DNA of 27,303 nucleotides from a virus (taxonomy: Duplodnaviria; Heunggongvirae; Uroviricota; Caudoviricetes): IMG/VR virus record IMGVR_UViG_2690315994_000016, positions 1-27,303 of that record; one strand, 5' to 3'. A program made the position numbers and the translations under genes. Every line of letters begins with the position of its first letter. The stretch's first letter is position 1. The notes under the pieces are model-generated. The model searched no databases. It saw only the letters and a list, made by a program, of their open reading frames with translations, and was not told where the DNA came from. Below, piece by piece: positions 11,074 to 11,772 of the stretch.

Positions 11074-11772
11074 TTATTTGTTTCTTCTTTGTTCACGCCT
11101 TGTCTTGGCTTCGATAAGGCGTTGAGGTTCAGTGTAAAGCCGTTCTAAAAAAAGATAGGTAAAATCTTCAAGATCCTCAGCAGCAGCTTTATCCAAAATA
11201 CCTTCATGCGCTCCATCATTTCCGTCATCTTTAACGCATTCAGCTAGTTCCCTTAAAGCTTCAGGCAGTAGATGATTATCAAATAACCACTCCATTCTTA
11301 ACCCTAGGCTTCTCCTTATTTTTTGCGCAGGCCCTTGCTCCCCATCAGGAAGAAGTCCTTTTGTGGCATAATCAAGGCAAAGCCTAAACATGGTTGCTGC
11401 TGCATTATAACAACCTATAGCCAAACATTTCGCCCCTTCCTCATATGCACTATTGATATGCTCAGGTAAGAACTCTGGTGGCTCCTCTACTGCTAAGTCT
11501 ACCGGTGATATAGGCCTAACAACCTCTGCAACTTCCTTTAAGCCGAATATTCCACTTTCCCAATTATAGCCATCTAAAGTTTTATTTTTCGTTAAAGGTC
11601 TGCAAAGAAACATTGTCGTTTTATGACACTCTCGGCAAACACAATAGACCTCGTACTCGTATGTTTTACCCCCGCCCAATGCATTGTAAACCCTAGTGCA
11701 ATTCAGCCCATTAACATCAAACGCTATTTTTTGTGATCCACATCGTGGACAGTCATCCACTAACATAACCAT
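11074..11772 (-). CDS. Zinc-ribbon + HEPN-like (DUF4145-type) protein, accessory gene between Q and cos
   Basis: N-terminal CPRCG...CVCRECH zinc ribbon; C-terminal helical region with GNDGAHEG...LEDFTYLFLERLY resembling the DUF4145/HEPN R-x(4-6)-H region; strong GGGAGGAG RBS; lower GC than backbone. Confidence 0.5.
   Translation of the reverse strand: MVMLVDDCPRCGSQKIAFDVNGLNCTRVYNALGGGKTYEYEVYCVCRECHKTTMFLCRPLTKNKTLDGYNWESGIFGLKEVAEVVRPISPVDLAVEEPPEFLPEHINSAYEEGAKCLAIGCYNAAATMFRLCLDYATKGLLPDGEQGPAQKIRRSLGLRMEWLFDNHLLPEALRELAECVKDDGNDGAHEGILDKAAAEDLEDFTYLFLERLYTEPQRLIEAKTRREQRRNK

Follow-up and report, generated by a model that had tools for sequence, protein, structure and literature searches.

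The function of a single gene

What is the function of a gene placed between the portal gene and the cohesive-end site (cos) of a P2-like prophage, where phage P2 itself has almost no sequence? The question is raised by IMG/VR record IMGVR_UViG_2690315994_000016, a Caudoviricetes sequence of 27,303 nt that is called, as a whole, the window below. The window holds a P2-like prophage, and the letters Q, P and A are used here for its P2-type genes. On the minus strand, an open reading frame (ORF) at 11074..11772 encodes a protein of 232 amino acids (aa) in which a zinc ribbon is joined to a DUF4145/HEPN domain; in the ORF list it has an ATG start and a stop codon at 11074-11076. We refer to it as the DUF4145 gene. 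An earlier reading of the letters alone, the original prediction, had proposed it as a candidate for a single-gene defence system. Our comparisons support that proposal, and by analogy with the RNase RAZR we consider it fairly probable that the gene, as cargo for lysogenic conversion in the P2 hotspot, encodes a RAZR-like RNase that brings about abortive infection as a single protein and belongs to a sister family of RAZR.

A zinc ribbon joined to a DUF4145/HEPN domain

The protein consists of three parts. The N-terminal Cys4 zinc-ribbon domain, which is the presumed sensor (aa 1-58; 11599..11772, minus strand), carries the two knuckles C8-P-R-C11 and C46-R-E-C49. All four cysteines were invariant in an alignment of 24 diverse homologues, and two CxxC motifs were found in 119 of the 120 closest homologues, so the CxxC...CxxC zinc ribbon of the original prediction was borne out. 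The ribbon is followed by a variable linker (aa 59-97; 11482..11598, minus strand), which is the part with the lowest conservation (mean pairwise identity 0.22), and then by a domain of the DUF4145/HEPN fold, the presumed RNase effector (aa 98-215; 11128..11481, minus strand). The predicted identity of this last domain was confirmed with Pfam, where the DUF4145 profile matched aa 114-203 with 30.3 bits (E 4.5e-7) against a curated cut-off of 23.1 bits.

The putative catalytic motif, K181-DDGNDGA-H189 (11206..11232, minus strand), was placed from hhalign columns and motif counts. It lies in a loop, C-[VI]-K-[DEN]-[DE]-G-N-D-G-A-H-x-G, that was nearly invariant in the 24 homologues, and K181...H189 has the [R/K]-x2-G-N-x3-H form of DUF4145 and RAZR proteins, with seven residues between the basic residue and the histidine. 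The HEPN superfamily has R-x4-6-H; the window protein has K-x7-H, and the spacing from R146 to H154 in RAZR is also x7. Anantharaman et al. described the HEPN motif as 'mostly conserved (80%)' in DUF4145. The earlier claim of a GN..AH motif like R-x(4-6)-H therefore held in one part only: the GN..AH is there, and the spacing is x7 with a lysine instead of an arginine as the basic residue.

An AlphaFold2 model with a mean predicted local distance difference test (pLDDT) score of 84.8 showed a beta domain at the N-terminus and a bundle of helices at the C-terminus, and the beta strands of the zinc-ribbon domain were modelled at residues 18-30, 36-46 and 52-59. A Foldseek search with this model gave no significant match. 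The PDB was also searched by sequence, with the protein alone and with a profile of 24 sequences; nothing relevant was found, and the RAZR entries 9Y9C and 9Y6U were not recovered.

Homology to RAZR over both domains

The abortive-infection gene PD-T7-4 was first reported by Vassallo et al. 2022 (PMC9519451), under the label 'Zn finger-HEPN'. PD-T7-4 from Escherichia coli UMB1727 is RAZR, short for ring-activated zinc-finger RNase (Zhang et al., Nature 2026, February; PMC13017515), a single gene that combines a Cys4 zinc-finger domain with DUF4145/HEPN. The same study showed that R146A and H154A each abolish defence and that RAZR alone, even when overproduced, is not toxic. Linear oligomers of RAZR rearrange into a 24-mer around phage protein rings of roughly 170 Å, which are formed by the portal proteins of T7, T3 and SECphi18 or by an Erf-like recombinase, and the activated enzyme cuts single-stranded RNA without sequence specificity. 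The zinc-finger domain is both the specificity determinant and the most variable region of the protein (PMC13017515).

When the window protein was scanned with PADLOC, PD-T7-4 was the only family matched (25.2 bits, E 2.4e-6, positions 39-165 of the 211 in the profile). PD-T7-4 was also the best PADLOC match for all of ten further members of the window family and the sole match for eight of them (19-41 bits), and in six of the ten the alignment began at the first zinc knuckle (profile position 14-15). A true PD-T7-4 member, Javan263_0009 from a Streptococcus phage, scored 235.9 bits over profile positions 7-208. This protein was used to seed a RAZR comparison set of 21 sequences, in which R146 and H154 were invariant. 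An hhalign comparison of 24 window-family proteins with the 21 PD-T7-4 proteins gave a probability of 97.6% (E 3e-12) over 155 columns at 23% identity, and it paired K181 with R146, H189 with H154, R130 with R105, and the second CxxC knuckles with each other. By profile comparison, the window protein was shown to be homologous to RAZR over both domains. Because the score on the PD-T7-4 model is weak and yet profile-profile homology is found at 23% identity, the window family is classified on its sequences as a sister family of RAZR, not as a member.

Conservation along the protein pointed in the same direction. Mean pairwise identity in the window family was 0.42 in the finger, 0.22 in the linker and 0.69 in the HEPN domain, and the corresponding values in the RAZR set were 0.31, 0.38 and 0.60. 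Judged from these alignments, the window family shares with RAZR the gradient from a variable finger and linker to a conserved HEPN domain. Both proteins are single-gene systems of about 210-235 aa with an N-terminal Cys4 ribbon and a C-terminal DUF4145/HEPN domain, they share the motif [R/K]-x2-G-N-x3-H-x-G at the equivalent position as well as a second conserved arginine (R130 = R105), and both families are found on mobile elements. They differ in that the window protein has a longer finger, a linker that is longer by ~35 residues and an insertion at aa 154-165. They also differ in location, as the window gene occupies the Q-cos slot of a P2-like prophage whereas PD-T7-4 homologues are described as frequently overlapping with the gene of an integrase (Vassallo et al.). 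The single-gene defence reading thus gains support from a shared zinc finger plus HEPN (ZF+HEPN) architecture and from RAZR as a remote homologue.

A lysine at the position of the catalytic arginine

Among the 120 closest homologues, all of them at least 49% identical, position 181 was a lysine in 118 of the 119 proteins that carried the motif. The equivalent position in the RAZR family was an arginine in 118 of 118. An exhaustive search of 1.84 billion cluster representatives retrieved 136 clusters with an E value of up to 1e-30 and 917 with one of up to 1e-3. In the wider set of more distant relatives, position 181 was an arginine in 50 and a lysine in 40, while the DGNDGAH loop was otherwise fixed. 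K181 looks like a conservative variant that belongs to one subclade of a family otherwise equipped with the canonical arginine. An alternation between lysine and arginine is the pattern expected of a catalytic basic residue, and the interchange of the two within a fixed loop argues for a working active site, not a dead one.

A cassette in the P2 defence hotspot

The interval gpA-cos-gpQ of P2 is an established hotspot of defence genes (Rousset et al. 2022, PMC9122126; Vassallo et al. 2022, PMC9519451). Table S5B of Rousset et al. lists, as system #29, a 'zinc_ribbon_13/DUF4145' protein that was found at 125 loci and carries the comment 'Putative nuclease' (PMC9122126). Its sequence equals that of the window protein save for V91A, so the window gene is already catalogued as a putative nuclease in the P2 hotspot. 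The tables of tested systems were searched for P2 HEPN candidates and only pFR103 was found; this 'Putative HEPN', tested by Rousset et al., was rejected as a counterpart of the window protein, to which it is unrelated. The P2 genes old and tin lie in the same hotspot as the window gene, but they encode unrelated proteins and are on the gpA side of cos, whereas the window gene is on the Q side.

The Q-to-cos stretch of the window was 99.6% identical to that of Escherichia phage Cartapus (Peduoviridae, Elveevirus). The homologue in Cartapus is CARTA_1, annotated as a 'DUF4145 domain-containing protein', and the window protein is 99.6% identical to it. The cargo on the far side of cos was different in Cartapus and in the window.

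The portal gene Q (10031..11065, plus strand; identified by Pfam Phage_portal and the Cartapus annotation) is convergent with the DUF4145 ORF, and a gap of 8 bp (11066-11073) separates the two stop codons. On the other side, the cassette is bounded by the P2-type cos cohesive-end sequence, a 19-mer, GGCGTGGCGGGGATACGAG (11883..11901, minus strand), which was located by alignment with P2 cosL and the left end of Cartapus. It agrees with P2 cosL at 14 of the 19 positions, the adjoining flank bases are also common to both, and the cos region at 11870-12028 was 86-90% conserved in other P2-like phages. The distance from Q to cos is ~820 bp in the window, compared to 186 bp between cosL and Q in P2, terminator tQ included, in agreement with the original prediction of roughly 800 bp at a site where P2 is nearly empty. 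A cassette of ~800 bp is inserted between Q and cos. The GC content was 0.41-0.45 across 11050-14000, compared to 0.53-0.60 in the core genes P, Q and A. The DUF4145 gene thus shows the features of hotspot cargo: it lies between gpA and gpQ beside cos, its site is variably occupied and its GC content is atypical.

Upstream of the gene, an A+T-rich 5' leader of 110 bp runs from cos to the start codon (11773..11882, minus strand). The strong ribosome-binding site that had been predicted for the 232-aa ORF was found by direct reading of the sequence as the Shine-Dalgarno element GGGAGGAG (11781..11788, minus strand), 8 nt before the ATG. No conserved ORF was found in the leader of the gene in the window. 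The next cassette in the window is divergent, and the DUF4145 gene therefore needs its own promoter. When the DNA upstream of the ORF was scanned for consensus promoters, no sigma-70 site was found on the minus strand, and the promoter candidates read by eye were weak ones only. No intrinsic terminator was predicted on either strand between Q and the DUF4145 gene; the sole terminator-like hairpin found (11905-11920, plus strand) lies beyond cos. Transcripts of the late genes P and Q may therefore run through the DUF4145 gene in antisense orientation. A search of 10900-12300 against Rfam found no known RNA families, as matches at E <= 1 were chance matches only.

Distribution and selection

Relatives of the protein were encoded in 16 of 50,697 phage records, and Cartapus was the sole P2-like carrier among these. 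A survey of 5,426 complete E. coli genomes found the DUF4145 gene in 43 and the Q lineage of the window in 1,244. The gene is thus not a structural or packaging gene found universally in P2-like phages, which the original prediction had named as an outcome that would speak against a defence role. Enterobacterial P2-like prophages carried homologues with 56-88% identity in the same Q-proximal slot, and across cos these prophages had GAPS4, a 372-aa unknown protein, nothing, or a pair of genes like phosphoribosyltransferase (PRTase) and DprA.

Most of the 59 loci from other species had no P2 genes nearby. A homologue in Pseudomonas palleroniana (locus 7001-7696, 50% identical) was located at the edge of a small integrative element and adjoined its integrase; the element further holds a Toprim primase, a CP76-like gene and a helix-turn-helix repressor. 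This integrase neighbour is reminiscent of PD-T7-4, whose homologues were noted by Vassallo et al. to lie frequently next to the gene of an integrase. A copy in Nitrospira stands alone. The 136 clusters found at E <= 1e-30 (clustered at 50% identity) came from Proteobacteria, Nitrospirota, Omnitrophota, Planctomycetota and Verrucomicrobiota. These distributions, together with the low GC content, showed that the DUF4145 gene is accessory and mobile.

Selection was assessed from nonsynonymous (dN) and synonymous (dS) substitution rates. The dS was saturated for most pairs, and the three unsaturated pairs, which were the only usable ones, gave a dN/dS of 0.05-0.10 in the HEPN domain; these three pairs showed no sign of positive selection. 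A comparison of the window gene with an 88% identical homologue gave a HEPN dN of 0.022 and a nominal ratio of ~0.01, with dS at or near saturation. The dN of the finger and linker was 2-5 times that of the HEPN domain. The low ratios indicate that the DUF4145 gene is under strong purifying selection.

Expression in a lysogen

Cartapus is prophage 4 of the adherent-invasive, Crohn's-associated E. coli strain LF82 (PMC9928086). The LF82 copy of the gene, LF82_788 (= CARTA_1; NC_011993.1 2758544-2759242), is 99.6-99.9% identical to the window copy. In the supplementary RNA-seq data of PMC9928086, the log2 of fragments per kilobase per million (fpkm) for LF82_788 was 4.65 and 4.71 in overnight lysogeny broth (LB), 7.0-7.6 in the B1/B6 samples and 9.2-9.6 in the MB1/MB6 samples. 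The portal gene Q was at 2.5-3.1 throughout. Judging from the text of PMC9928086, the MB samples are bacteria inside macrophages. The normalised counts in LB were 25.6 for CARTA_1, 7.7 for the portal gene and 5.7 for the terminase gene (PMC9928086). In LB, CARTA_1 stood ~3.5-fold above background, under the 5-fold moron cut-off of that study. In the prophage, CARTA_1 thus has a transcription of its own, independent of the late genes. The same data set showed that CARTA_1 and its hotspot neighbours CARTA_47 and DinI rose ~30- to 75-fold from overnight LB to MB6 and CARTA_46 ~20-fold, with the structural genes silent (PMC9928086).

A model for the DUF4145 protein

The DUF4145 gene is a credible candidate for a defence gene in a known defence hotspot. 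By analogy with RAZR, from which we infer ring-templated activation, RNA cleavage and the abortive-infection phenotype, the protein would be harmless in a lysogen, where it would probably exist in the form of inactive oligomers. On infection by another phage, its variable zinc-finger domain would bind a phage protein, which in the case of RAZR is a portal or Erf-like ring of ~170 Å. Assembly on this scaffold could then position the HEPN dimers so that composite K/H sites cut single-stranded RNA without sequence specificity. Translation would stop, the infected cell would release no phage, and sibling lysogens would be protected.

A more specific version of this model is that the protein is a suicide RNase that senses portal rings and that its position beside the portal gene of its own phage is functional. 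The 8-bp convergent gap without a predicted terminator suggests antisense silencing of the DUF4145 gene by late P-Q transcription. Such antisense transcription could switch the gene off exactly when the phage's own portal rings are made, and tight linkage would leave every zinc-finger allele paired with a portal allele not recognised by that finger. If true, the arrangement would give the phage an inbuilt solution to the self/non-self problem faced by any phage-borne portal sensor. We regard this version as unlikely.

Several observations weigh against a RAZR-like RNase. The window protein scores 25 bits on the PD-T7-4 model versus 236 for a true member, it shares only 23% identity with RAZR, the hhalign alignment covers the zinc-finger region from residue 34 on only, and 35 residues separate the two zinc knuckles compared to 25 in RAZR. 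It has a lysine where RAZR has an essential arginine, so the arginine at the R146 position is not conserved, while the histidine (H189) is present. The GNDGAH loop (184-189) was the sole low-confidence segment of the AlphaFold2 model, with a pLDDT below 50. Four cysteines in the HEPN domain, C116, C121, C132 and C179, are invariant in the window family and absent from RAZR, and the median number of cysteines per protein is 9 in the window family versus 4 in the RAZR family. These residues, of which C179 is two residues ahead of the putative catalytic K181, might make up another metal-binding site or serve as a redox switch, adding a control on the enzyme. A portal-sensing RNase carried by a phage that makes portals would also need a mechanism for self-tolerance. 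Finally, DS-38 is a validated single-protein ZF+HEPN defence system of E. coli from the Laub lab (DefensePredictor preprint, 10.1101/2025.01.08.631726), in which the HEPN domain, but not the zinc finger, can be aligned with PD-T7-4, and the authors suggested a different mechanism. The window protein stands in the same relation to PD-T7-4, with DS-38 compared by its description only.

Alternative explanations

The main rival keeps the effector and changes the trigger: the protein would be a ZF+HEPN defence RNase that is activated in a way unlike RAZR, by phage nucleic acid, by a phage protein that does not form a ring, or by the loss of a host factor. We consider this a possibility of some weight, at a lower probability than the RAZR-like model. 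The zinc-finger region is where the two families are least similar, given the start of the hhalign alignment at residue 34, the knuckle spacing of 35 versus 25 and the linker that is ~35 residues longer, and the validated DS-38, with its distinct proposed mechanism, aligns with PD-T7-4 in the HEPN domain only. The protein also matched PHROG 1305 (179 bits), which is labelled 'DNA binding protein', but this label is an unverified annotation. On the other hand, both families have retained the CPxC and CxxC knuckles, the PADLOC alignments of related members begin at the first knuckle, and the combination of a variable finger with a conserved HEPN domain is as in RAZR; these features favour activation of the RAZR kind.

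Three other roles fit the data poorly. A toxin of an addiction or toxin-antitoxin-type module, which would stabilise the prophage and have no part in defence, was considered because HEPN domains are common toxins, for example in HEPN-MNT modules, and the gene has been kept in a prophage whose terminase gene holds a stop codon. However, the flanks varied and no conserved partner or antitoxin neighbour and no MNT gene was found across the loci, the Nitrospira and Pseudomonas copies have no partner gene, the leader has no conserved ORF, Rfam gave no RNA in 10900-12300, and RAZR is not toxic when overproduced. The window protein further differs from the HEPN-MNT toxins (7AE2/7AE6, 5YEP) and from Csm6 in that it has no MNT antitoxin or CARF domain, its motif has the x7 spacing and not R-x4-6-H, and its regulatory domain is a zinc ribbon. 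We judge this explanation very unlikely. Less likely again is a role in counter-defence or self-protection, where a RAZR-like decoy would shield the phage's own portal from RAZR-type sensors of the host or poison their oligomers. The gene is indeed beside a phage portal gene, RAZR senses portals, and the essential arginine is replaced by a lysine. Yet the nearly invariant catalytic loop and the Lys/Arg interchange point to a working active site, the window family is mostly found outside phages, the gene is expressed in the lysogen while late genes are silent, and co-assembly with RAZR is unlikely at 23% identity. A role in the phage life cycle, as a packaging factor at cos, a head-assembly accessory or a regulator, is suggested by the location between Q and cos, by a relative in Gordonia phage Meyran at the cos end beside terminase genes, and by the PHROG label 'DNA binding protein'. 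It was given the lowest probability of all, as P2 and almost all P2-like phages and prophages lack the gene, copies of it occur in non-phage contexts, its GC content is low and its transcription is independent of the late genes.

RAZR is so far one family that responds to portals and an Erf-like ring, and a widespread sister family would test how general ring-templated activation is in zinc-finger DUF4145 (ZF-DUF4145) proteins. The window family would show whether a lysine can replace the canonical HEPN arginine. The carrier phage builds its own portal ring, so the locus offers a natural case in which to ask how abortive-infection sensors carried by phages keep from activating themselves. The model would also account for one of the commoner uncharacterised cargo genes of the P2 hotspot in E. 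coli (125 loci in Rousset et al.), a gene that is carried and expressed in the Crohn's-associated strain LF82 as well.

Neighbouring genes and related proteins in other phages

Across cos, the window has a ComF/PRTase-like gene that resembles ShosT/PsyrT (12173-12754, plus strand; PADLOC ShosT 33 bits, PsyrT 28 bits), and it is overlapped by a DprA/LDcluster4-like gene (12745-13314, plus strand; a weak PADLOC match to PsyrA). The PRTase/DprA-like pair is separate cargo and is one residue off system #98 in Table S5B of Rousset et al. (33 loci). A related system of DprA and PRTase, which also comes from the P2 hotspot, confers protection against T7 and lambda.

The large terminase gene P (8265-10031) has an in-frame TAG at 9402-9404 where Cartapus has GAG, owing to a G-to-T change at 9402. 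The stop codon splits P into the ORFs 8265-9404 and 9417-10031, and the hotspot cargo is intact. From its sequence, the window prophage is probably unable to package DNA.

Proteins with a DUF4145 domain were also seen in other phages. Gene 1 of Gordonia phage Meyran (94-783) encodes a distant ZF-DUF4145 relative with 27% identity and 21 bits on PD-T7-4, and it lies on the cohesive-end side of the genome, where it is followed directly by the terminase and portal genes. Virgibacillus phage Mimir87 encodes a 310-aa DUF4145 protein (2683-3615) with 43.7 bits on PD-T7-4 and ~100 extra aa at the N-terminus; its gene lies inside the tail module, between the genes for the distal tail protein and a tail protein. 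A bridge to RAZR was looked for in the ZF-DUF4145 proteins of lambdoid, Stx and Burkholderia phages (25-32% identity), and these were rejected, with only 15-17 bits on PD-T7-4 or nothing. A third ZF-DUF4145 family, of 224 aa, was found in the E. coli lambdoid phages PhiR5_2 (4040-4714) and PhiR12_3 (3992-4666) and in the Stx phages POCJ13 and 75/02. Members of this family are 25-26% identical to the window protein, score 15-17 bits on PD-T7-4 and are encoded in the early or immunity region of lambdoid prophages, beside HigBA or RelE-type antitoxin genes.

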